The notes under the pieces are model-generated. The model saw only the letters and a list, made by a program, of their open reading frames with translations, searched no databases and was not told the origin of the DNA. DNA of 64,000 bases from an uncultured candidatus Porisulfidus sp. (GTDB lineage Bacteria; Pseudomonadota; Gammaproteobacteria; Poriferisulfidales; Poriferisulfidaceae): the NCBI GenBank assembly GCA_963668445.1, contig OY764335.1:918346-982345 (forward strand). The letters are read 5' to 3'. Shown in pieces: positions 1,470 to 38,734 of this stretch. The position numbers were made by a program, and so were the translations under genes. Positions within the stretch are counted from its first letter, which is position 1. Every line of letters starts with the position of its first letter.

Positions 1470-1868
1470 ATGCATAGGTTGCCGGTGCGGGTGTATTATG
1501 AGGATACCGATGCCGAGGGTGTGCTTTATCATGCGGCTACGATCCGCTACCTGGACCGTGGCCGCACTGAGTGGCTGCGGGCCGCGGGACACCTCTTGCG
1601 GCATATGGCAGAGGCGGAACGACGGGTGTTCGCCGTGCATTCGCTGACAGTCCGCTATCTGGGCATGGGCCGCTTGGATGACGAACTGACGGTGCATACG
1701 CGCCTGTCCGCTCGCGGACGCGCGTCGCTCGATTTTGAACAAAGCCTATGGAGGGAGCAGGAATGCTTGGCGCAGGCGGAGATTCGGGTGGCATGCCTGA
1801 ATGTGGAGACGGGGCGTCCGGCGGCAGTGCCGGAGCTAAGGCCTGACGAGGAACCGGACGATGCATGA
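1470..1868 (+). CDS. ybgC: Tol-Pal-associated acyl-CoA thioesterase YbgC (hotdog fold)
   Basis: 132 aa; N-terminus VYYEDTDAEGVLYHA typical of 4HBT thioesterases; sits immediately upstream of tolQ. Confidence 0.8.
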   Translation: MHRLPVRVYYEDTDAEGVLYHAATIRYLDRGRTEWLRAAGHLLRHMAEAERRVFAVHSLTVRYLGMGRLDDELTVHTRLSARGRASLDFEQSLWREQECLAQAEIRVACLNVETGRPAAVPELRPDEEPDDA

Positions 1869-2538
1869 ATTCACGCTTTTGGGCATGCTGACGCAGGCTT
1901 CGACAGTTGTGCAGGCTGTCATGCTGCTGCTGCTGCTTGCCTCGATCGCGTCGTGGGCCATCATCCTCAACAAGTCGCGCGTCCTGAACGTCCATCAGAA
2001 GGATGCGCGCAAGTTCGAAGATCGATTCTGGCAAGGCGTCGATCTGTCGCAGCTGTATGGGCAGCTGCGCCAGCGGAAATCGCATTCGGCGCTGGAGGAA
2101 GTGTTTTGCTTGGGCTTTCGCGAATACGTGCAACTGACCCGGAATCGGCAGGTTTCGCTGGATAGCATCAACCATACGGCGGTGCGCAGCATGCGCGTCG
2201 CGCTGTCGCGCAATGTCGAACATCTGGAAACGCATTTGCCGACGCTGGCGACCATCGGCTCCACCAGCCCCTACATCGGCTTGTTCGGCACGGTGTGGGG
2301 CATCATCAACGCATTCCATTCGCTGGACCCGACGCAGGGTGCGTCAATGCTGATTTCCATTGCACCCGGAATCTCGGAGGCTTTGGTGGCGACCGCCTTG
2401 GGCTTGTTCGCAGCCATCCCCGCGGTCATTGCCTATAATCGCTTCACCGACCGGGTGGACAAGTTGCAAGTGCAGTACAGCAACTTCATTGAAGAGTTCA
2501 CCGCGCTGCTGCAGCGCGAATCGCTGCAGAGCGACTAG
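1861..2538 (+). CDS. tolQ: Tol-Pal system protein TolQ (MotA/ExbB family)
   Basis: 225 aa; GLFGTVWGIINAF and IAPGISEALVATALGLFAAIPAVIAYN signatures. Confidence 0.9.
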   Translation: MHEFTLLGMLTQASTVVQAVMLLLLLASIASWAIILNKSRVLNVHQKDARKFEDRFWQGVDLSQLYGQLRQRKSHSALEEVFCLGFREYVQLTRNRQVSLDSINHTAVRSMRVALSRNVEHLETHLPTLATIGSTSPYIGLFGTVWGIINAFHSLDPTQGASMLISIAPGISEALVATALGLFAAIPAVIAYNRFTDRVDKLQVQYSNFIEEFTALLQRESLQSD

Positions 2539-2541
2539 GCC

Positions 2542-2976
2542 ATGGCTCCGCTGCAGACCACCCGCCGCCACATGGCGCAGATCAACATCGTGCCGTACAT
2601 CGATGTCATGCTGGTGCTGCTGCTTATCTTCATGATTGCAACTCCCTTGATGCAGCAAGGCATGCTGATCGATTTGCCGAAAGCGCCGTCGGAGCCTGTC
2701 GAGCCGGAACCGTACCACGAGCCGCTGGTGCTGGAAATCAATCGCGACGGCGAATTGCGGCTGGTGCGCGAAGGGACGTTCTCCAATGCGGTTGCCGAAT
2801 CGGACTTGCCGGGCCTGGTTGAGGCCATGATGCGCGAGGGCGGCGATGAGACGCTGTATGTGCGTGCGGACGCAGGGCTGCCGTACGGCACCGTGGTGGC
2901 GGCCGTCGCCCGGCTCAGCCAAGCCGGCGTGACGGCTTTGAGCCTGCTGACGCAGCCGCCGGCGGAATCCCCATGA
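2542..2976 (+). CDS. tolR: Tol-Pal system protein TolR (ExbD family)
   Basis: 144 aa; TM segment INIVPYIDVMLVLLLIFM with the conserved Asp. Confidence 0.9.
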   Translation: MAPLQTTRRHMAQINIVPYIDVMLVLLLIFMIATPLMQQGMLIDLPKAPSEPVEPEPYHEPLVLEINRDGELRLVREGTFSNAVAESDLPGLVEAMMREGGDETLYVRADAGLPYGTVVAAVARLSQAGVTALSLLTQPPAESP

Positions 2977-3809
2977 TCGTTTCGCCGCGTTCCGTCGGCA
3001 GGGCGCAGCACCGCTTTGGCACTTGGGCCTGGGTCGGCGCCGTGGCCGTGCATGTCGGCATTTTCGCCGCGCTGCAGTTCGGCAGCACTCCGCCAGCCCG
3101 CTCCAGCATCTCGTTGCCGCCAGCGACCGAAGCGATCCGGGTCCAAGCCATGGATGCGGAAGTCCTGCGCAAGCGGCGTGCGGCGCATCAGCGGGCGCTA
3201 CGCGAATTGGAGCAAGCCCGGCAACGTGAAGCGCAAGCCAAAGAAGCCGAACGGCTGCGGCAGCAGGCATTGCGCCAAGCGGCCGAGCGCAAACGCCGCG
3301 AAGCCAAGCAGCAAGCGAAACGGAAACGTGCCGAAGAGGAGCAGCGCCGGCGCGAGGCCGCGCAGCGCGAAGCGGAGAAACTCCGGGAGGCTAAGGCTGC
3401 GGCGATGCGGGCCGAAGCCGAACGGCAGGCCAAAGTGCTGAAGGAGCAGCTGGCACGGGCAGAGCGGGTCGCCGGCCAGAGGCGAGCGGAGCAAATGCGC
3501 AAGCAGCGCCGGGAGGCGGAGAGGCGCAGCCGTCTGCTCGGCGAGTGGACCGTGGCCATTCGAGCGCGCATTGAAAATCTTTGGCGGCCGCCGCCAACGG
3601 CGGCAAGCCGGCCCTGCGAAGCCGTTGTCGAACAGAGCAAACACGGCGAGGTGCTATCGGTCAAAGTGCGCAACTGCACCGCCTCCCAAGCTTGGCAGGA
3701 TTCCCTGCGCAACGCCGTGCTCAAGGCAAGCCCGTTGCCGGCCGCGCCGCACAAGAATCTGTTCGAGCGGCGGCTGGTCATTACGTTCCATCCCAAGGAG
3801 CGCGACTGA
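2973..3809 (+). CDS. tolA: Tol-Pal system protein TolA
   Basis: N-terminal TM segment, long A/E/K/R-rich helical region, C-terminal globular domain; position between tolR and tolB. Confidence 0.8.
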   Translation: MIVSPRSVGRAQHRFGTWAWVGAVAVHVGIFAALQFGSTPPARSSISLPPATEAIRVQAMDAEVLRKRRAAHQRALRELEQARQREAQAKEAERLRQQALRQAAERKRREAKQQAKRKRAEEEQRRREAAQREAEKLREAKAAAMRAEAERQAKVLKEQLARAERVAGQRRAEQMRKQRREAERRSRLLGEWTVAIRARIENLWRPPPTAASRPCEAVVEQSKHGEVLSVKVRNCTASQAWQDSLRNAVLKASPLPAAPHKNLFERRLVITFHPKERD

Positions 3810-5113
3810 TGGGGGTTCGATTGCGACTGTTGGCGCTGCTGGCTCTGGCATGGCCGCCGCTCGGCCAGGCCGAACTGCTTCTGGATGTGCGCGAGGGCGT
3901 GGAAGGCGGCATTCTGATTGCGGTCGCGCCGGTCGGCGCATCCAGTCGGGAACTGGCGGATGTGGTCCGATGGGATCTGTCGTTCAGCCCGGCCTTCGAA
4001 GTGCTGCAGCCCGGCAAAATGCCGCAAGCCGTCCTGTCCGGTCATACACCGAATTGGGCAGATTGGCGCCAGCGCCCGGTCGAGTACCTGCTGACGGTCG
4101 AGAGCCAAGAACTGGGGAACGATCGGGTCGGGCTGAAGTTCCATCTGCAGGATGTGCTGCGCGGACGCACGATCTTGGCGCGCCGGCTGGCAGTCGCGCA
4201 GCGGTTCCATCGGCGTCTCGCGCATCAGACGGCCGATGCCGTGCATGAGCACCTTACCGGGGTTCCGGGCGCATTCGATACGCGCATGGCATACATCAGC
4301 CAAAGCGGGAGCGGCCGCAAGGCCCGCTACCGCCTGTATGTCTCCGACATTGACGGGCATCGGCCGGTAGCATTGCTCGAGTCGCCGCACCCGTTGCTGT
4401 CGCCGGACTGGTCGCCGGACGGGAAGCAACTGGCCTACGTGTCGTTCGAACTCGGGCACGCGCAAGTGTACGTGCACCACTTGGCGAAAGGCGCCCGCCG
4501 GCCCTTGCCTTATGACGGAGCCCACTCCAGTGCGCCGGACTGGTCGCCGGACGGGCGGCAGCTGGCGATGGCGATGACCATTGAAGGGGATACGGAAATC
4601 TTCATCTACACGCTGGCGACAAACACGCTGCGCCGCCTCACGCGCAGCCGGGGCATCGATACGGAGCCGGTCTGGACGGCGGACGGCAAGGCGCTGGTCT
4701 TTACGTCGGGACGCTCCGGCCAGCCACGGCTCTACCGGCAGGCCGTGCATGGCGCGGCGGCATCCGTGCTCCCGATCGCGGGCCGCTACAGCGCATCTGC
4801 GGATGCCTCGCTTGACGGACGCTATCTGGCATTCGTGCAGTCCACCCCGCAGGGCGGCTTCGGCATTGCGCTGTACGAGACGGCAAGCGAGGTTGTGCAT
4901 CCGCTGTCGTCCGGCGGTCTGGACGAAGCGCCGTCGTTTGCGCCCAACGGGCTCGGCTTGCTGTATGCCAATACCATGCGCAGCAGGAAGCGGGGCGGGA
5001 AGGCCGGGAAGCAAGTGCTGACGCGAACCAGTCGTGATGGTACAATCCAACGGCAGTTGGACATCCCGCAGGCGAATGTACGGGAGCCTGCATGGTCCCC
5101 TTACCGCCACTGA
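3809..5113 (+). CDS. tolB: Tol-Pal system beta-propeller protein TolB
   Basis: ATG at 3809 overlaps the tolA stop (TGATG); signal peptide MGVRLRLLALLALAWPPLGQA; repeated DWSPDG propeller motifs. The long ORF-track start at 3581 was rejected. Confidence 0.9.
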   Translation: MGVRLRLLALLALAWPPLGQAELLLDVREGVEGGILIAVAPVGASSRELADVVRWDLSFSPAFEVLQPGKMPQAVLSGHTPNWADWRQRPVEYLLTVESQELGNDRVGLKFHLQDVLRGRTILARRLAVAQRFHRRLAHQTADAVHEHLTGVPGAFDTRMAYISQSGSGRKARYRLYVSDIDGHRPVALLESPHPLLSPDWSPDGKQLAYVSFELGHAQVYVHHLAKGARRPLPYDGAHSSAPDWSPDGRQLAMAMTIEGDTEIFIYTLATNTLRRLTRSRGIDTEPVWTADGKALVFTSGRSGQPRLYRQAVHGAAASVLPIAGRYSASADASLDGRYLAFVQSTPQGGFGIALYETASEVVHPLSSGGLDEAPSFAPNGLGLLYANTMRSRKRGGKAGKQVLTRTSRDGTIQRQLDIPQANVREPAWSPYRH

Positions 5114-5124
5114 TGGTTTTGATT

Positions 5125-5715
5125 ATGGAATTGCCACTCTCGAGATATGTGCTGCTATTGACTCTGCCGCTACTTGGCGCATGCAGCAGCGAAAAAGACG
5201 AACCGCCGCTTGACGCACTGGATCCGCCGGCGGCCTTGCTGGAGGAGGAACAGCCGCAGCAGCCTCAGGACGGCGTCAAAACAACGCGCTTGGATGACGA
5301 TGGCAATATCCTTTCCGACGAAATAGTACACGACGAAGATAGCGGCGAATTCGCGGCGGCGGACGACATGGAATCGCTGCCGGCGCAAGGCACCACCGTG
5401 TACTTCGGCTACGACAGCACCGATATCGACTCCCAATACATGGGCATCATCCAGAAAGTGGCCGACCGTCTGCACAGCAATTCGTCCGCGACGGTGCGTT
5501 TGGAGGGCCATACGGACGAACGCGGCTCCCGAACATACAATTTGGCGCTTGGCGAGCGACGGGCGCAAAGCGTGCTAGATTTGCTGCTGGAGAAGAATGT
5601 GCTGCCCGAACAAGTGGACTGGGTCAGCTATGGCGAAGAGATTCCGGCGGTGACCGGGCAGGGCGAAGAGGTCTGGAGGAAGAATCGCCGGGTCGAAATG
5701 ATTCTGGACGAATGA
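5125..5715 (+). CDS. pal: Peptidoglycan-associated lipoprotein Pal (OmpA-like)
   Basis: Signal peptide with lipobox LLGAC; OmpA-like motifs VRLEGHTDERGSRTYNLALGERRA; start chosen at the ATG just before the signal peptide. Confidence 0.9.
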   Translation: MELPLSRYVLLLTLPLLGACSSEKDEPPLDALDPPAALLEEEQPQQPQDGVKTTRLDDDGNILSDEIVHDEDSGEFAAADDMESLPAQGTTVYFGYDSTDIDSQYMGIIQKVADRLHSNSSATVRLEGHTDERGSRTYNLALGERRAQSVLDLLLEKNVLPEQVDWVSYGEEIPAVTGQGEEVWRKNRRVEMILDE

Positions 5716-32311: not shown

Positions 32312-33253
32312 ATGCAACCGAGCACAGCGCAAACAGTCCAGAACCGGGTAGGCATGCTGATGTGGCAAGCCGCCTTGGTGCCGCTGCTTGCGGCGGTGCT
32401 GGTCGCCTTGCAATTCGAAATCATCGAGGAGGTTTATTGGGGGCCTTTGACGACAGAGATCGGCTGGGTGGTCAACGGCGTCATTATGGTCTTGTTTCTG
32501 GCTGCGCTGCTGCGCATGAGTGCGCTACTGCGCTTCTATTTTCGCGAGGACCGTGCCATCGATGCATTCGACGAGCAGTTGGATTTCGGGCTGGCTGGAG
32601 ATAAGGCCGAAAGCCTCGCCGGTACGCTTGTCATGCAGCGCTATCGGGCCTTGGAGCAGAGCCGGCTGGAATGGGAACAGCCCCATCAAACGGCTTTGGC
32701 AGGCATTTTGTGGAGTCAAGAGGCTGCACGCTTGGGCTTGATGCGTCTGATTCAGAACGTGCTGATCCTGCTCGGCGTCTTCGGCACGGTGGCTTCCCTG
32801 TCGCTCGCCCTGATCGGTGCTTCCGAACTTTTTTCCTCGCCGGAGAATGCCAGCGGCATCACATTGGTCGTGCGCGGCATGGCCACCGCCTTGTCGACAA
32901 CCATGGCCGCGATCGCCGCGTATCTTGTGCTGGCATTCGTCGCGTCTCGCGTGATCGCGGCGCAAGCGCATGTCTGCCGCCGGGTCGAGTCCCTGACCAT
33001 CAACCGCATGTTGCCGCTGCTTTCCAAAACATCCGGAAACCTGGCGCAGAACCTGCTGCATGCGCTCAGCGAATTGCAAAGCCTGCTGGCAGGCCTGCGC
33101 GATACGCATGACGCCTTGCAAAAGCAGGCGTTGAATTTGGGCGAATTCGAACGGGCGCGGCTCGAACATGAAGCCGCACTGCTGAAGCAGATGCGCCGCA
33201 TTAATCAAGCGCTGAGGGAAGGGTTCCGACTACAGAATACGGGGGCGCCATGA
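32312..33253 (+). CDS. MotA/TolQ/ExbB-family proton-channel protein with a C-terminal coiled-coil tail
   Basis: Helix LILLGVFGTVASLSLALIG matches the LLGxxGTV signature shared with tolQ in this same window; a second helix GMATALSTTMAAIAAYLVLAF; about 100-aa helical tail; start may instead be the internal Met at about 32354. Confidence 0.6.
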   Translation: MQPSTAQTVQNRVGMLMWQAALVPLLAAVLVALQFEIIEEVYWGPLTTEIGWVVNGVIMVLFLAALLRMSALLRFYFREDRAIDAFDEQLDFGLAGDKAESLAGTLVMQRYRALEQSRLEWEQPHQTALAGILWSQEAARLGLMRLIQNVLILLGVFGTVASLSLALIGASELFSSPENASGITLVVRGMATALSTTMAAIAAYLVLAFVASRVIAAQAHVCRRVESLTINRMLPLLSKTSGNLAQNLLHALSELQSLLAGLRDTHDALQKQALNLGEFERARLEHEAALLKQMRRINQALREGFRLQNTGAP

Positions 33254-34146
33254 ACATGGAGCAAGCGGCCCCGTTCGGGCAAGGCATCTTCCAAGCCCCC
33301 GGCGGCGAAGAAAGTTTTTGGCCTTCCTTTACGGACGTGATGATGGTGGTCGTCATCGTGTTCCTGCTGTCCAGCACGGCCGTCGTCTTGCACAATTGGG
33401 ATTTGGCCAACCAGGTCCGGGCGATGATCATGCTGGAACAGCAGGCCCGCACCGAAGCCGAAGATCTGACGGCGCAGCAAAAGCTCCTGCACGCGGAACT
33501 GGAGCACTTGCGCGAGCGCATGGCGCATGCGAGCGCAGCGTTGACGCACAAAAGCCAAACGCTGGCGGCCAGGGACGCGGAATTGAAAGAGGCCCAAAGC
33601 GGCCTTTTCGACCTTCGAGCTTCCACGCTGCTCGTGCAGAAGGAACGCGACCGCCTGCTGGAGGAGATGGAACTGGCCAAGGCTGCCAATGCCAAGCGGG
33701 AACAGCAACTGCTGGCCGCGCAGCAGCAATTGGTGCGGCTGGAGGAAGAAAAGGCAGGTTTCGAGAAGATGTTCGTGACGGTGGATGCGCAGCACCGCCA
33801 GACGCTGGAGGAGTTGGAAATGCTGCGGACCCAGCATGCGGAAATCGAAGAGAAGTACCGAGTGCTCATGAAGCCGGCACGCAGCGCCTTGGGCAAGGTT
33901 TCGGTCGCCGTGCGCTATACCCGGCGCGACGGGCAATTGACGACGGAACTTCGGATCCCGGATTCGGACAAATTCCTGTCCGTCGATTCGGAAACTTTGC
34001 ATCAGATGCTTGGCGACCTGAAAGAACAGCACTCCGGTCAGTTGTTCTTGCGCATCATTATCCCCACAGGGGCGAATCTCAGCTACGAAGAAGGCTGGCA
34101 GTTTTCGCTCGATCTGCTGCGCCGCTACGATTACTACTACCAATGA
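33250..34146 (+). CDS. MotB/TolR/ExbD-like plug/anchor protein with a long periplasmic coiled coil
   Basis: N-terminal FWPSFTDVMMVVVIVFLL (TM with conserved Asp, like FTDVM/ADLM of MotB/ExbD); about 150-aa coiled coil; C-terminal about 80 aa only weakly OmpA-like; 4-nt overlap with the upstream MotA-like gene. Confidence 0.55.
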   Translation: MNMEQAAPFGQGIFQAPGGEESFWPSFTDVMMVVVIVFLLSSTAVVLHNWDLANQVRAMIMLEQQARTEAEDLTAQQKLLHAELEHLRERMAHASAALTHKSQTLAARDAELKEAQSGLFDLRASTLLVQKERDRLLEEMELAKAANAKREQQLLAAQQQLVRLEEEKAGFEKMFVTVDAQHRQTLEELEMLRTQHAEIEEKYRVLMKPARSALGKVSVAVRYTRRDGQLTTELRIPDSDKFLSVDSETLHQMLGDLKEQHSGQLFLRIIIPTGANLSYEEGWQFSLDLLRRYDYYYQ

Positions 34147-34187: not shown

Positions 34188-35114
34188 ATGGCGGCATCCG
34201 TGGCGGTGGAAGGCTTGGTCAAGACCTACGGCGACCTGCGGGCAGTCGATGGTCTCAGCTTCGCGGTCGAGACCGGCGAAGTGCTCGGATTTCTGGGCCC
34301 GAACGGGGCCGGGAAGTCCACCACCATGAAAATGATTACGGGCTTCCTGCCGCCGACGGCAGGGCAGGCCTCGGTATGCGGCTACTCGGTCGCCGAACAG
34401 CCCTTGCAAGCCAAACGCTGCCTCGGCTATTTGCCGGAAGGCGCTCCCGCATACGGCGAGATGACGCCGTGGCAGTTCCTGAATTTCGTCGCCGACATCC
34501 GGCGTCCGCAGAATCGTTCGGAGCAGATGGACCGGGTGGTCGGCCAGCTGGCACTCGAACCGGTGCTGCATCGGCCAATCGACACCTTGTCGAAAGGCTA
34601 CCGCCGCCGCGTCGGGCTGGCGCAGGCCATGCTGCATGATCCGCAGGTGCTGATCATGGACGAGCCGACTGACGGGCTGGATCCGAACCAGAAGCAGCAA
34701 GTGCGCCAGTTCATCAGCGAGATGGCCCGCGACAAGACCATCATCATTTCCACGCATATTCTGGAGGAGGTGGAGGCCATCTGCACCCGGGCGATCATCA
34801 TCGCGAACGGCAAGGTGCTGGTCGACGAGACCCCGGACGCCTTGCGGGCACGCTCCCGCTACAGCAACGCGGTGACGATCCAAGGCGATGTGGCTCCGGA
34901 CGTGCGCAAGGGCTTGGCGGAACTGGACGGTGTGGCCGTCGCGGAACCGGAGCGCGAGCAGAGCCTCACGCTGATTCCCAAGTCCGGCTGCGTCATCGAA
35001 GAGCCGGTGCGCCGCCTCCTGCTGCGCCACGGCCTGCAAGACATCCGGCTGTTCATTCAGCCCGGCCGGCTGGACGACGTATTCCATGCGCTGACCCATC
35101 ATGCCCATGAATAA
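34188..35114 (+). CDS. ABC transporter ATP-binding protein (GldA-like, ABC-2 type)
   Basis: Walker A GPNGAGKST, signature LSKGYRRRV, Walker B LIMDEPT. Confidence 0.85.
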   Translation: MAASVAVEGLVKTYGDLRAVDGLSFAVETGEVLGFLGPNGAGKSTTMKMITGFLPPTAGQASVCGYSVAEQPLQAKRCLGYLPEGAPAYGEMTPWQFLNFVADIRRPQNRSEQMDRVVGQLALEPVLHRPIDTLSKGYRRRVGLAQAMLHDPQVLIMDEPTDGLDPNQKQQVRQFISEMARDKTIIISTHILEEVEAICTRAIIIANGKVLVDETPDALRARSRYSNAVTIQGDVAPDVRKGLAELDGVAVAEPEREQSLTLIPKSGCVIEEPVRRLLLRHGLQDIRLFIQPGRLDDVFHALTHHAHE

Positions 35115-35841
35115 CCTCCACGCCATTGTTCGGCGCGAGCTGATCAGCTATTTCCAGACGCCGATCGCCTACGTGTTCATCATGATCTTCCTGCTGCTGT
35201 CGGGGGCGATGAGCTTTTATTTGGGGAACTTCTACGAACGCGAGCAGGCGGATTTGGATGCCTTCTTTTCGTTCCATCCTTGGCTGTACCTGTTTCTGGT
35301 GCCAGCGATCAGCATGCGGCTGTGGGCGGAAGAACGCAAGACGGGCAGCATCGAACTTCTGACGACGTTGCCGCTGACGGTCCTGGAAGCCGTGCTCGGC
35401 AAGTTCCTTGCGGCCTGGGCCTTCACCGGCATCGCCTTGCTGCTAACCTTCCCGATCTGGCTTACCGTCAATTACCTCGGCGACCCTGACAATGGCATCA
35501 TCGTGGCCGCGTATCTGGGCAGTTTCCTCATGGCCGGAGGCTTCATGGCGATCGGCGCCTGCCTGTCCGCCGCCACCCGAAATCAGGTAATCGCTTTCAT
35601 TCTCAGCGTCGTCACTTGCTTTCTTTTCCTGCTGAGCGGGTTTCCCATCGTGCTGGACTTTTTCCAGCTGTGGCTGCCGCAGCCGATCGTGGATGCGATT
35701 GCATCGCTGAGCTTTCTGACGCACTTCTCATCGATCAATAAGGGCGTCATCGATGTTCGGGACTTGCTGTATTTCGTCATTCTGATTTCGGTATGGCTGT
35801 ATGCCAATGTGATTGTGGTTCGGACTCGGAAAGCGGCATGA
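35101..35841 (+). CDS. ABC-2 type transporter permease (GldF-like)
   Basis: 246 aa, six predicted TM helices; overlaps the ATPase gene by 14 nt. Confidence 0.75.
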   Translation: MPMNNLHAIVRRELISYFQTPIAYVFIMIFLLLSGAMSFYLGNFYEREQADLDAFFSFHPWLYLFLVPAISMRLWAEERKTGSIELLTTLPLTVLEAVLGKFLAAWAFTGIALLLTFPIWLTVNYLGDPDNGIIVAAYLGSFLMAGGFMAIGACLSAATRNQVIAFILSVVTCFLFLLSGFPIVLDFFQLWLPQPIVDAIASLSFLTHFSSINKGVIDVRDLLYFVILISVWLYANVIVVRTRKAA

Positions 35842-37721
35842 AGATGCCCGATCAGCACATGTACGCCGCAGCGGGCCTGAGCCTGCTCGCGATCCTGTTC
35901 GTCTCCAGCATCATGTTCAGCAATCTGGTGCTAGACAATCTGCGCCTAGACCTTACGGAGCAAAAACTGTATACCGTCAACGAAGGCACCTTGAAGGTTC
36001 TGGGAGGCATTCAGCAGCCCATCAACTTGTACCTGTTCTTTTCCGATCAGGCCAGCTCCGACAACACCTATTTGCGCAACTACGCCCGCCGCGTGCGCGA
36101 ACTGCTGGAGGAGTATGCCTACTATGCGGACGGGCGGCTGACGCTGCAGGTGATCGACCCTGCTCCGTTCTCGGAAGAAGAGGACCGTGCGACGGAATTC
36201 AATCTGAGTGCCGTTCCGACGCAGCAGGGAAACAACCTCTACTTCGGCCTGGTTGGCACGAATGCTGTCGATGATGTTGAAATTATTGAATTTTTTCAGC
36301 CGGAGCGCGAAGCGTATCTGGAATACGACATCAGCCAGTTGATCTACGCGCTGACGCATCCGGCCAAACCGGTCGTCGGCGTCCTGACCGGACTTCAGAT
36401 GTTCGGCGGATTCGATCTCGGGGCGCAGCGCTCCACGCCCGAATGGGCAATTTTGGACCATGTCAAGCGCACGTTCGAAGTGCGCCAGATCGATCCGGCC
36501 GACGGCACGGTCGATCCGGACATCCAGACGCTGATGCTGGCGCATCCCAAGCGACTGTCGCCGAAAACGCTTTACGCGACCGACCAGTTCGTGATGCGCG
36601 GCGGGCGCATGCTGCTGCTGGTGGATCCGTACGCGGACAAGGATCCGATGTTCCAGCAGGCCAGCAACCCGCCCGAGTCCGGCGGCATTCAGGCATCCGA
36701 CAGCGTCGAACTGCTGGCGGCCTGGGGCTTGCGCATGGATACGGAGCAGATTGCGGCGGACCGCACTTTGGCGCTGCCGGTGCAAAGCCCCGGTCAAAGG
36801 CGCACGGTGCGTCATGCTTCGTTCCTCAACGTGCATGCGCAAGCCATCAATCGCAACAACCTGATTACCGCGCAGCTGTCCAGGGTCATGATGGGCTTTC
36901 CTGGACATCTTGAGCAGGCGGAAGGATTCGAAGGCGAATTCATCCCATTGCTGACCACGACCGAAGACTCCAAAACGATTCACAAGCAACACTACCGCTA
37001 CCTGCCGGATCCTTCAACCCTGATGCAAGGATTCGAGCCGGGCGGAACTCCGCTGACACTGGCCGCATGGGTGCGCGCCCGACCCCGAAGCCTCTTCCCG
37101 GATGGGCCGCCGGAAGGCGCGGAAGAACCGGCCGACGGCCACCGCGCCGCTGCCGAAGAAGCCGTGGATGCGATTGTGGTCGCCGACAGCGACATGCTGT
37201 CGGACACGCTGTGGGCTCAGGTGCAGAGCTTCTTCGGGCAGCGGGTCGTCCAGCCGTGGGCCAACAACGGGGATTTCATCGTCAATGCGCTGGAAAGCCT
37301 GGGGGGCAGCAGCGATCTGATCGGATTGCGCGGCCGGGCACGATTCTCACGGCCGTTCCATGTCGTTGACGGTCTGCGGCGGCAAGCGGAGGGTCGCCTG
37401 CATCTCAAGGAAGAGGAGTTGAAGACGCGTTTGCAAGAAGCGGAGCAGAAGATCGCGCAGCTGCAGCAGCTCAAGCAGGACGAGGACCAGAACCTGCTTA
37501 CCGAACAGCAGCGGGCGGAAATTATCTCCTATCAGCAGGAGCGGGCGCGGATCCGGCGGGAATTGCGTTCGGTCCGGCATGAATTGGATCGTGACATCCA
37601 GCGGCTGGGCTTCGCCTTGCGCTTGATTAACATCTGGCTGATGCCCATCCTTCTGACAGCCGCCGCCATCGGCTTGTGGATGTTCCAGCGCCGCCGCCGC
37701 GCCCAGCGAGTCGCTTCATGA
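35838..37721 (+). CDS. GldG-family ABC-transporter auxiliary protein
   Basis: N-terminal TM, large periplasmic domain, C-terminal coiled coil plus TM; ATGA overlap with the permease; characteristic GldG architecture. Confidence 0.7.
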   Translation: MKMPDQHMYAAAGLSLLAILFVSSIMFSNLVLDNLRLDLTEQKLYTVNEGTLKVLGGIQQPINLYLFFSDQASSDNTYLRNYARRVRELLEEYAYYADGRLTLQVIDPAPFSEEEDRATEFNLSAVPTQQGNNLYFGLVGTNAVDDVEIIEFFQPEREAYLEYDISQLIYALTHPAKPVVGVLTGLQMFGGFDLGAQRSTPEWAILDHVKRTFEVRQIDPADGTVDPDIQTLMLAHPKRLSPKTLYATDQFVMRGGRMLLLVDPYADKDPMFQQASNPPESGGIQASDSVELLAAWGLRMDTEQIAADRTLALPVQSPGQRRTVRHASFLNVHAQAINRNNLITAQLSRVMMGFPGHLEQAEGFEGEFIPLLTTTEDSKTIHKQHYRYLPDPSTLMQGFEPGGTPLTLAAWVRARPRSLFPDGPPEGAEEPADGHRAAAEEAVDAIVVADSDMLSDTLWAQVQSFFGQRVVQPWANNGDFIVNALESLGGSSDLIGLRGRARFSRPFHVVDGLRRQAEGRLHLKEEELKTRLQEAEQKIAQLQQLKQDEDQNLLTEQQRAEIISYQQERARIRRELRSVRHELDRDIQRLGFALRLINIWLMPILLTAAAIGLWMFQRRRRAQRVAS

Positions 37722-38734
37722 ACGCCCGCGAATTCAAAATCCTCGCCGCCCTGACGGGCACCATGCTGGTGCTGACCATCATGGCCTACAGCGTCTTCCA
37801 TCGCACGGCCGACCATGAGTACGCCGGGGAGTTATGGCTGGAGGCGCTTGACGTCAATACGGTGACGCGCATCGAAGTTCACGGTCCGGAAGAAGCCGAG
37901 CAGGTGTCTCTGGAGCGGCGCCCGGAAGGTTGGGGCGTCGTGCAGCGCCGGCACTACCCGGCGCAAGTCGGCATGATCCGCCGTTTGCTTCTGGACTTAT
38001 CGGAAGCGAAATTGTTCGAGCGCAAGACCGACAATCCGGAGCAGCACGCGCAACTGGGCCTAGGGCGCATTGACGAGCCCGGTGCTGTAGGGCAGCAGGT
38101 CGCGCTGCATTTTGAAGGCGGTGGCCTGACGGTGCGCATCGGCTCCAGGCCGAGCGGGCGCAATTCGACTTACGTGCGCACTGCCGGCGACGATCAGGCG
38201 TGGCTGGTGGACCGCACATTCACGATTCCTGCGGAGCCGCGCCGTTGGCTGGAGCCGACGCTGCTGGACATCGGCATGGAGCAGATCGAGCGTATCCGCA
38301 TTGAACATCCGGATGGCGAGGTCATTGAAGGGCAACGGGCGACGGACGAAGGCGGAGTGCGGTTTGATGTGCTGCGCGTGCCGGCCGGGCGGAGCCTCAA
38401 GAACGAGTTCATCTTGAGCCGCGCCGCCGGTTCTATCGCGAGCCTGTCGCTGGAGGATGTGATGCCCGTGGATCAGGCGCGCGAATATGTGCAGGATGCG
38501 TCGCGCATCACGTATGCCATCCAGCGTGGCTACGCACTGGAAGCGCAATTGTTTGTGCGGGACATCGAGCGGTATGCGGTGTTCTCGATTCGCGTACAGG
38601 AAGATGCCGCCGAAGAGGCTCGCGCGGAAGCGGAGCAGTTGGCAGGGCATGTGCGGGACTGGGCCTTCCGCATCCCCTCGTTCGCCTACGACAGCATGGT
38701 GCTGCGCTGGTCCGATATTCTGAACGAGGAGTAG
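37718..38734 (+). CDS. DUF4340-domain protein (partner of GldG-type ABC systems)
   Basis: N-terminal TM plus about 310-aa periplasmic region; ATGA overlap with the GldG-like gene. Confidence 0.6.
   Translation: MNAREFKILAALTGTMLVLTIMAYSVFHRTADHEYAGELWLEALDVNTVTRIEVHGPEEAEQVSLERRPEGWGVVQRRHYPAQVGMIRRLLLDLSEAKLFERKTDNPEQHAQLGLGRIDEPGAVGQQVALHFEGGGLTVRIGSRPSGRNSTYVRTAGDDQAWLVDRTFTIPAEPRRWLEPTLLDIGMEQIERIRIEHPDGEVIEGQRATDEGGVRFDVLRVPAGRSLKNEFILSRAAGSIASLSLEDVMPVDQAREYVQDASRITYAIQRGYALEAQLFVRDIERYAVFSIRVQEDAAEEARAEAEQLAGHVRDWAFRIPSFAYDSMVLRWSDILNEE

Follow-up and report, generated by a model that had tools for sequence, protein, structure and literature searches.

A TolQ- and TolR-like gene pair encoding a B subunit with a long heptad-regular coiled coil in a candidatus Porisulfidus

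The gene pair and its membrane-embedded parts

A pair of overlapping genes related to the TolQ-TolR and ExbB-ExbD motors has been identified in the genome of an uncultured candidatus Porisulfidus sp. of the Gammaproteobacteria (assembly GCA_963668445.1). The window considered in the current analysis is a stretch of 64,000 nucleotides of contig OY764335.1 (positions 918,346 to 982,345, forward strand), and coordinates refer to positions in this window unless mentioned otherwise. The first gene encodes an A subunit and the second a B subunit, which is best described, from its predicted structure, as a TolR in which a coiled coil has been inserted after the membrane helix, ahead of the periplasmic domain. 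The open reading frame of B is confirmed at exactly the coordinates given below. Its start codon lies on the stop codon of A in an ATGA overlap, which suggests translational coupling of the two genes. The features of the pair are the following.

32312-33253, plus strand: A subunit gene of the TolQ/ExbB/MotA family, 313 aa
33221-33232, plus strand: C-terminal GFRL motif of A (family consensus LLReGFRLP, from a 46-sequence alignment)
33250-34146, plus strand: B subunit gene, 298 aa plus stop
33328-33390, plus strand: predicted transmembrane ('transpore') helix of B, residues 27-47, with the Asp29 codon (33334-33336) at its cytoplasmic end within FWPSFTD
33391-33867, plus strand: predicted continuous heptad coiled coil of B, residues 48-206 (159 residues, 23.6 nm)
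33868-33885, plus strand: rod/head junction motif M-K-P-A-R-S of B (consensus [RK]PARS), with P209, A210 and R211 invariant
33886-34143, plus strand: head of B, residues 213-298, of TolR/ExbD-type fold in the predicted structure

None of 50 homologues of B carries a functional name in any source, and the family is without a Pfam or NCBIfam model. Its clusters in the ESM Atlas have been given the automatic names 'Smc', 'hypothetical' and 'MotB family', with no Pfam family attached. The labels PF25541 TBCA_PH and PF24161 CCDC39 seen on some homologues were considered and set aside as generic coiled-coil matches.

Four transmembrane helices are predicted in A (about residues 16-34, 50-72, 145-169 and 186-213), with a loop at residues 73-144 and a helical tail about 100 aa long, both cytoplasmic. 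The Pfam MotA_ExbB model matches A with an E-value of 3.6e-4, under the cut-off, and PF01618 matches are found in 43 of the 46 A homologues (best E-value 1.5e-6). In an hhalign comparison A aligns with TolQ/ExbB over 171 columns (probability 93.5%, E-value 2.2e-7), GVFGT being paired with GLxGTV and GMSTALSTT with GISEALxTT at the conserved-threonine positions. The GT and TT positions, which make up the threonine ring in TolQ/ExbB, are kept in A. This alignment is compatible with an A5B2 complex in which the Asp of B would face the threonine ring of A. At the end of the tail G304, F305, R306 and L307 are nearly invariant among the 46 A sequences, and in 53 of 66 A subunits compared GFRL lies 115 residues from the motif of the fourth transmembrane helix. 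When the profile of the A family was compared with sequences of the PDB, the only matches were coiled-coil noise arising in the tail, and ExbB, MotA and ZorA chains were absent from them.

The hydrophobic helix at residues 27-47 of B has the FWPSFTD motif at its head. Asp29 does not vary in either of two alignments of B homologues, of 25 and of 73 sequences, and in the former set, with overall identities of 25-79%, the invariant columns comprise F23, W24, P25, S26, T28, D29, M31, V33 and F38. The Pfam ExbD model (PF02472) scores 14.7 bits against a cut-off of 25.4 and covers residues 26-48 only, without reaching the gathering threshold; weak PF02472 matches are seen in 13 of the 25 homologues (best E-value 0.0018). 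The transmembrane segment aligns with an ExbD/TolR alignment with an E-value of 5e-5 (hhalign). This alignment was built from 28 genomic sequences, and one genome flagged as unpublished (G039) was not included in it. Chains of ZorB are the sole non-coiled-coil matches of the B-family profile in the PDB, namely 8vvn_B (E-value 9.6e-6, residues 18-75), 8vvi_A and 8qyd_F, and the entries 8vvn and 8vvi originate from a study of Zorya (PMC11890865). The ZorB1 model of PADLOC matches B in the transmembrane region only (E-value 3.3e-4), its ZorA2 match is also weak, and the NCBIfam ZorB1 model scores 14.1 bits in the same stretch against a cut-off of 400. An original prediction, made from the DNA alone, had placed a plug/transmembrane signature with an essential Asp at residues 20-40 and regarded B as a stator-B-type subunit like MotB or ExbD. 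Both proposals are borne out by the helix with its invariant Asp and FWPSFTD motif and by the ExbD/TolR and ZorB profile matches.

The coiled-coil rod and the head of the B subunit

The region following the membrane helix had been predicted to form a periplasmic coiled coil of about 150 residues, with nearly unbroken heptads at residues about 50-200, and both statements agree closely with the present results. In sliding windows of 28 residues one heptad phase is maintained over residues 48-206, and the hydrophobic contrast of the a and d positions has a z of 4.3 in comparison with shuffled sequences. Fourier peaks are observed at 2.34 (7/3) and about 7.3 residues, and Pro is absent from the rod. 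The AlphaFold2 model of full-length B, obtained with an alignment of 25 sequences, has a single unbroken helix at residues 27-206, with a predicted local distance difference test score (pLDDT) above 90 over most of it and a dip at residues 207-210. The rod length given above is derived from 0.1485 nm per residue.

Hydrophobic residues occupy 66% of the a positions and 55% of the d positions (with a further 12% Ala at d) in 73 sequences of the family, compared with 8-17% at b, c, e, f and g. Charge is highest at e and g, and the rod is free of Pro in all 73 sequences. N49 at an a position and L52 at a d position are essentially invariant, and Asn is common again at a77. Asn residues at a positions are a hallmark of parallel in-register dimers. 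From this heptad chemistry and by analogy the rod is likely to be dimeric and parallel. M31, F38, L45 and L52 are spaced by seven, each of them at a d position, and the heptad frame therefore runs from the membrane into the rod without a flexible linker.

As a measure of rod length we took the distance that separates the invariant Asp from the [RK]PAR junction motif, with the invariant Pro of the motif as end point. Among 110 distinct sequences this distance is 5 mod 7 in 105, within a range of 159-320, and the lengths observed are 159, 166, 173, 180 (the mode, with 54 sequences), 187, 194, 201, 208, 215, 222, 243, 292 and 320. A more diverse independent set, comprising 119 cluster representatives at 50% identity or less, spans 124-422 residues, and 93 of its members are also 5 mod 7. 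A second class in this set (13 of 119) is 2 mod 7 and corresponds to one classical 4-residue stutter. The loci of Zetaproteobacteria have rod distances of 173, 180, 187, 191, 202 and 205; lengths thus differ among close taxa, and therefore repeated independent insertions or deletions of heptads are indicated. The length of the A tail does not co-vary with that of the B rod (r = 0.09).

The features of a canonical coiled coil, that is, continuous heptads, hydrophobic a and d positions, polar e and g positions and length changes by whole heptads, are all found in the family, and a dimer would be in keeping with them. These data show the rod to be genuine and continuous, with its register under selection and its length free. 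The quantised rod length and the continuity of the heptad frame out of the membrane helix are new findings of the current analysis. A rod folded as a helical hairpin was also considered and judged unlikely, given the single heptad phase, no Pro or conserved Gly break and length steps of single heptads.

The variation of rod length among lineages is also what may be expected of a passive tether or periplasmic ruler, in which the coiled coil would space or link the layers of the envelope and the motor parts would be vestigial. Long periplasmic coiled coils such as Lpp are known to act as spacers. Such a role is considered highly improbable here. Neither the proton-binding Asp nor any other part of FWPSFTD varies, the GT and TT motifs of A are kept unchanged in lineages that share only 28-35% overall identity, and the obligate pairing of A with B argues for an active channel.

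The last 86 residues form the best-conserved part of B after the transmembrane helix, with the consensus KY.KL.RPARS..GK.VV.VRY ... LH..L..LK ... LYVKIIIP.DSGLSY.EAW.F...LL.KYDYYYQ. The secondary structure of this head consists of strands at 217-226, 229-235 and 243-245, a helix at 247-260, a strand at 265-270 and a helix at 279-293, followed by an invariant YDYY C-terminus. AlphaFold2 models the head alone with a pLDDT of 91.1 and a predicted template modelling score of 0.79 (71 sequences). On comparison of this model with 48,161 solved chains by VIA-align 2, the first two rows are TolR structures, 2jwk with a Z of 8.4 and a root mean square deviation (rmsd) of 2.3 Å over 73 of 74 residues, and 5by4_A with a Z of 7.8. 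The third row, an unrelated chain, has a Z of 6.0, and ExbD (2pfu) is placed ninth with a Z of 4.9. When the full-length model was compared with the same chains, TolR provided the only non-coiled-coil matches in the top 50 (5by4_A: Z 8.6, rmsd 2.7 Å, 87 residues; 2jwk: Z 8.6, rmsd 2.2 Å, 74 residues). On the strength of these models the head is assigned as a putative TolR/ExbD-fold domain. The TolR fold has been proposed as a peptidoglycan binder in the Tol-Pal system.

No Pfam match of B to OmpA (PF00691) or MotB_plug (PF13677) has been found at E<=1, and none to VWA. In a six-frame search of the whole genome for PF00691 at E<=0.01 only Pal was detected (5401-5688). The scan for PF00691 with relaxed threshold, proposed along with the original prediction, thus leaves standing its view that B has no clear peptidoglycan-binding domain. 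The faint OmpA-like character that it ascribed to the last 80 residues gives way to a well-conserved head of predicted TolR/ExbD fold. An OmpA-like C-terminus together with no coiled coil had been named as the outcome that would contradict the prediction, and what is found is a coiled coil and no OmpA match.

These results bear on the idea that B is an ordinary paralogue of MotB or of a flagellar stator subunit, or that the pair is a remnant Zorya module. One cluster of the ESM Atlas is automatically named 'Flagellar motor protein MotB family protein', and weak PADLOC matches to ZorA and ZorB are seen. Against this, B lacks an OmpA or MotB_plug domain, and FliG (FliG_C) was not found in the genome, which excludes a flagellar stator role. 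The NCBIfam ZorB1 score stays at 14 bits versus 400, and no ZorC/D/E-like genes are found nearby. The pair also has a core chromosomal position and normal G+C content, with no phage or plasmid relatives. This idea is therefore regarded as effectively refuted.

Distribution and genomic context

Relatives are encoded in at least 378 species-level genomes. The carriers are mostly sulfur-oxidising Gammaproteobacteria, Zetaproteobacteria (Mariprofundus) and Desulfuromonadales, and the closest relatives belong to Candidatus Porisulfidus sponge symbionts. An exhaustive profile search among 1.84 billion representatives has revealed at least 302 clusters (50% identity) at E<=1e-30, with lengths of 258-604 aa. 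No relatives of the pair were found in the phage or plasmid collections. The head domain is present in 13 of 15 other species of the genus and was found in none of 15 genomes sampled among the sister families of its order, yet it is carried by Zetaproteobacteria and Desulfuromonadales. The pair thus belongs to the core of its lineage and has a patchy occurrence at higher taxonomic ranks, a pattern that suggests repeated loss or lateral spread. In the genome under study it is situated in a core chromosomal position, with a local G+C of 0.60 that is similar to the rest of the window and is normal for the genome.

A is encoded directly upstream of B in 78 of 80 related loci. The neighbours of the pair vary, with 38 gene families directly upstream and 49 directly downstream, and elsewhere they are unrelated housekeeping genes, for example those of ThiC, HisB, Dtd and GlnE. 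No third partner gene is conserved among the 80 loci, the commonest direct neighbours being lineage-specific and present in at most 9 of them.

In the present window the pair is followed by a tightly packed cluster (34188-38734) encoding an ABC ATPase, an ABC-2 permease, a GldG-like ABC_transp_aux/DUF7088 protein of 642 aa and a DUF4340 protein. The pair, this GldA/GldF/GldG-like ABC transporter and the DUF4340 protein could be taken together as one six-gene envelope machine. The genes are co-directional, B is separated from the ABC-ATPase gene by a gap of 41 bp with no terminator-like site, and the arrangement is kept in five Porisulfidus loci. This adjacency is seen in only 5 of the 80 loci, all of one genus, and the other 75 have unrelated neighbours. 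A six-gene machine is hence considered improbable, and the ABC cluster is probably an independent module.

Two further genes have been noted in the vicinity of homologous pairs. An orphan gene of the MlaC family, whose members are phospholipid-binding, accompanies the pair in 12 of the 80 loci, at a distance of no more than three genes and in two arrangements. It is situated either directly upstream (L034:817-1407, L055:376-1095 and L077:1373-2206) or two to three genes downstream (L039:10792-11427 and eight similar loci). The genome studied here has a single MlaC gene, far from the pair, at 753 kb. The MlaC neighbourhood provides a weak lead towards a link with lipids or with the outer membrane and envelope. 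A secreted Cys-containing protein of 177 aa, with a signal peptide and no Pfam match, is encoded directly 3' of B in nine loci of one gammaproteobacterial clade (L039:10094-10624 and eight others). A tblastn search revealed no homologue of it in the genome of the window.

The genome (1.757 Mb, one contig, 99.5% complete) also encodes the canonical systems. The tolQR-pal genes are located in the window at about 1840-5700 (tolQ at about 1861-2538, tolR at 2563-2958 and Pal at 5401-5688), and exbBD is encoded separately. The pair is therefore an additional system. Altogether five to six MotA/ExbB-family genes are present, at least two of which have non-canonical B partners. A second non-canonical motor locus is found beyond the window, at 440288-444053 of the same genome. 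It comprises a TolQ/MotA-like gene (287 aa, PF01618 E-value 8e-11), a gene of 308 aa without a Pfam match and two consecutive genes with a transpore helix (TPH), a coiled coil and a vWA domain. Both of the vWA-type proteins have an ExbD-like transmembrane helix with an Asp (AFLDVM and AFLDVV), then a coiled coil and a weak vWA match with DxSxS. This locus fits the class of TPH-vWA heterologous pairs, with tolQ and no tolR (PMC12204202). A third locus, at about 220.7-222.5 kb on the minus strand, encodes an orphan MotA_ExbB-family protein (388 aa, E-value 5.5e-6), followed by a single-transmembrane protein of 193 aa that has no Pfam match and no Asp in its helix.

Related systems and the proposed mode of action

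The pair is closest in its organisation to TolQ-TolR and ExbB-ExbD. A is of TolQ/ExbB type, B has a transpore helix with Asp and a domain of predicted TolR/ExbD fold, and the genes are adjacent, here overlapping. The differences lie in the parts that connect the motor to its surroundings. TolR and ExbD have a short flexible linker where B has a coiled coil of 159 residues (124-422 across the family). A has, in comparison with TolQ, an extra N-terminal transmembrane helix and the 100-aa tail ending in GFRLP, and no TolA/TonB, TolB or Pal genes are linked to the pair. The original prediction had described B as a fusion with a TonB- or TolA-like reach. The likeness holds only as a functional analogy, B being unrelated to TonB and TolA in both sequence and domains.

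TolQ-like genes without TolR have been proposed to pair with TPH-vWA proteins, in which a vWA head comes after an Asp-bearing transpore helix and which are proposed to rotate inside the pentamer (PMC12204202; Mol Biol Evol 2025). In these proteins, as in B, the B-type subunit itself bears the periplasmic extension and the head, and there is no separate TolR. They differ in having a vWA head and a heterologous pair of genes, whereas the present family has a TolR fold, a single B gene and a much longer, strictly heptad-regular rod. The profile similarity of the B family to the TPH-vWA protein of this genome is not significant (hhalign). By analogy, the B family may be seen as the TolR-headed, long-rod counterpart of TPH-vWA.

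GldL-GldM and PorL-PorM are alike in concept only, as motors of the 5:2 type with a rigid inner dimer that crosses the periplasm to the outer envelope (PMC9389320, PMC8986121). The periplasmic part of GldM is made up of globular domains and not of coiled coil, GldL has two transmembrane helices, and these systems belong to Bacteroidota. ZorA-ZorB resembles the pair in that ZorB chains are the closest solved sequences to the transmembrane region of B and in the helical cytoplasmic tail of A. ZorB, however, has a peptidoglycan-binding domain of OmpA type and the tail of ZorA is several-fold longer. Zorya is moreover an accessory island that needs ZorC/D or ZorE, none of which is encoded near the pair. 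With MotA-MotB and PomA-PomB the pair shares a four-helix A subunit, an Asp at the cytoplasmic end of the transmembrane helix of B and a helix following it where MotB has its plug. It differs from them in having no OmpA-like domain and no flagellar genes, and the loop of A aligns with TolQ and not with the torque-generating interface of MotA.

A survey of relatives of MotAB (PMC12505986; mBio 2025) describes heterogeneous non-flagellar 'GIT' complexes; the word 'coiled' does not occur in it, and no B subunit with a coiled-coil rod is described in the sections consulted. No description of a TolR-headed long-rod family has been found in the literature. The earlier remark that this architecture is unusual for the ExbD/TolR/MotB family is thus upheld, as such an architecture has not been described for it.

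Based on these comparisons we consider it more probable than otherwise that A and B make up a self-contained, two-protein, ion-driven motor from the TolQ-TolR/ExbB-ExbD lineage, with the B dimer as a shaft or anchor spanning the periplasm. The architecture and the identity as a motor of TolQR type are held with high confidence. The A subunits would form a proton-conducting ring, a pentamer by analogy with the solved 5:2 motors (PMC9389320), and two B subunits would be placed in its pore with each Asp29 in the ion path, so that the stoichiometry is probably 5:2 (A5B2). Beyond the membrane the helix of B would run on, its heptad frame unchanged, as one strand of a parallel two-stranded coiled coil about 24 nm long. 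The B dimer would thus be a rigid rod reaching the region of peptidoglycan or outer membrane without a separate TonB- or TolA-like arm, and the motor appears to bring along the arm with which it crosses the periplasm. Driven by proton flow, ring and B dimer would rotate against one another, and torque or tension would pass along the rod from the inner membrane to the target of the head, which may be peptidoglycan or an outer-envelope partner. Transmission of torque or tension along B is suggested because there is no flexible linker and the register is under selection.

With respect to the moving part, we tentatively prefer the rod as the output, as has been proposed for GldM and the TPH-vWA proteins, though the odds for it are short of even. 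In a more specific form the B dimer would spin as a coiled-coil drive shaft, 15-59 nm in length, with its TolR-type head acting on a load at the level of peptidoglycan or outer membrane; this form is rather doubtful. A fixed rod serving as anchor, with the ring and the cytoplasmic tail as the output, is likewise somewhat unlikely.

Such an anchor could be elaborated into a miniature of Zorya- or Ton-like logic, in which the B dimer is tied to peptidoglycan by its head, the ring of A subunits rotates and the output is delivered by the cytoplasmic tail or by an unlinked partner bound to the rim. The fixed length of the A tail (115 residues in 53 of 66) with its nearly invariant GFRL end, the position of ZorB chains as the closest solved relatives of the transmembrane segment, the weak PADLOC matches to ZorA2 and ZorB1 and the peptidoglycan binding proposed for the TolR fold in Tol-Pal (5by4 title) all speak for it. 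On the other hand, the pair has no third gene conserved beside it, no effector genes are found nearby and the A tail, at about 100 aa, is far shorter than that of ZorA. MotB and TolR are anchored by short linkers, and a rigid rod of 24-59 nm is not obviously needed for this purpose. This elaborated scheme is considered unlikely, and the rod as moving output remains the preferred reading.

Several observations weigh against the motor with a rod-bearing B dimer. The family is known from sequences and predicted structures alone, and the Pfam scores of A and B are both under the gathering cut-offs. The dimeric, parallel state of the rod and the stoichiometry are drawn from heptad chemistry and analogy. 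The likeness of the head to TolR is one of predicted structure only, as the profile-profile comparison of the head with ExbD/TolR is not significant (hhalign E-value 0.087), with the alignment in the register that the structure leads one to expect. The C-terminal structure prediction and fold search proposed along with the original prediction gave a divided answer, VIA-align 2 pointing to TolR and Foldseek against the PDB giving no significant E-values for either the full B model or the head alone. In the Foldseek search with the head, TolR 5by4 is placed at rank 46, yet it has the highest TM-score (0.55) and the lowest rmsd. Rods of up to about 400 residues (about 59 nm) are longer than any plausible periplasm is wide, and distance-matching to the outer membrane therefore fails for some members. 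Insertions and deletions of whole heptads are expected in any real coiled coil and are by themselves no proof of torque transmission. The family was also not found in the 15 genomes sampled from sister families and is hence not universally needed.

An open question in the Ton, Tol, gliding and Zorya systems is how ion-driven motors of the 5:2 type transfer work to remote targets. In the present family the transmission element would have the simplest geometry, a heptad-regular coiled coil that continues straight from the proton-binding helix. The natural series of lengths in heptad steps (124-422 residues) is suited to tests of torque or tension along B. If the B dimer is a rotating shaft, it would be the first coiled-coil axle among ion-driven motors, and it would provide a route of energy from the inner membrane to the outer envelope, independent of Tol and Ton, in chemolithotrophic bacteria. 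Envelope maintenance is our default guess for the cellular role of the motor, with tethering or transport as other candidates. In sulfur- and iron-oxidising bacteria of ecological importance and in sponge symbionts, the family would mark a conserved envelope machine.

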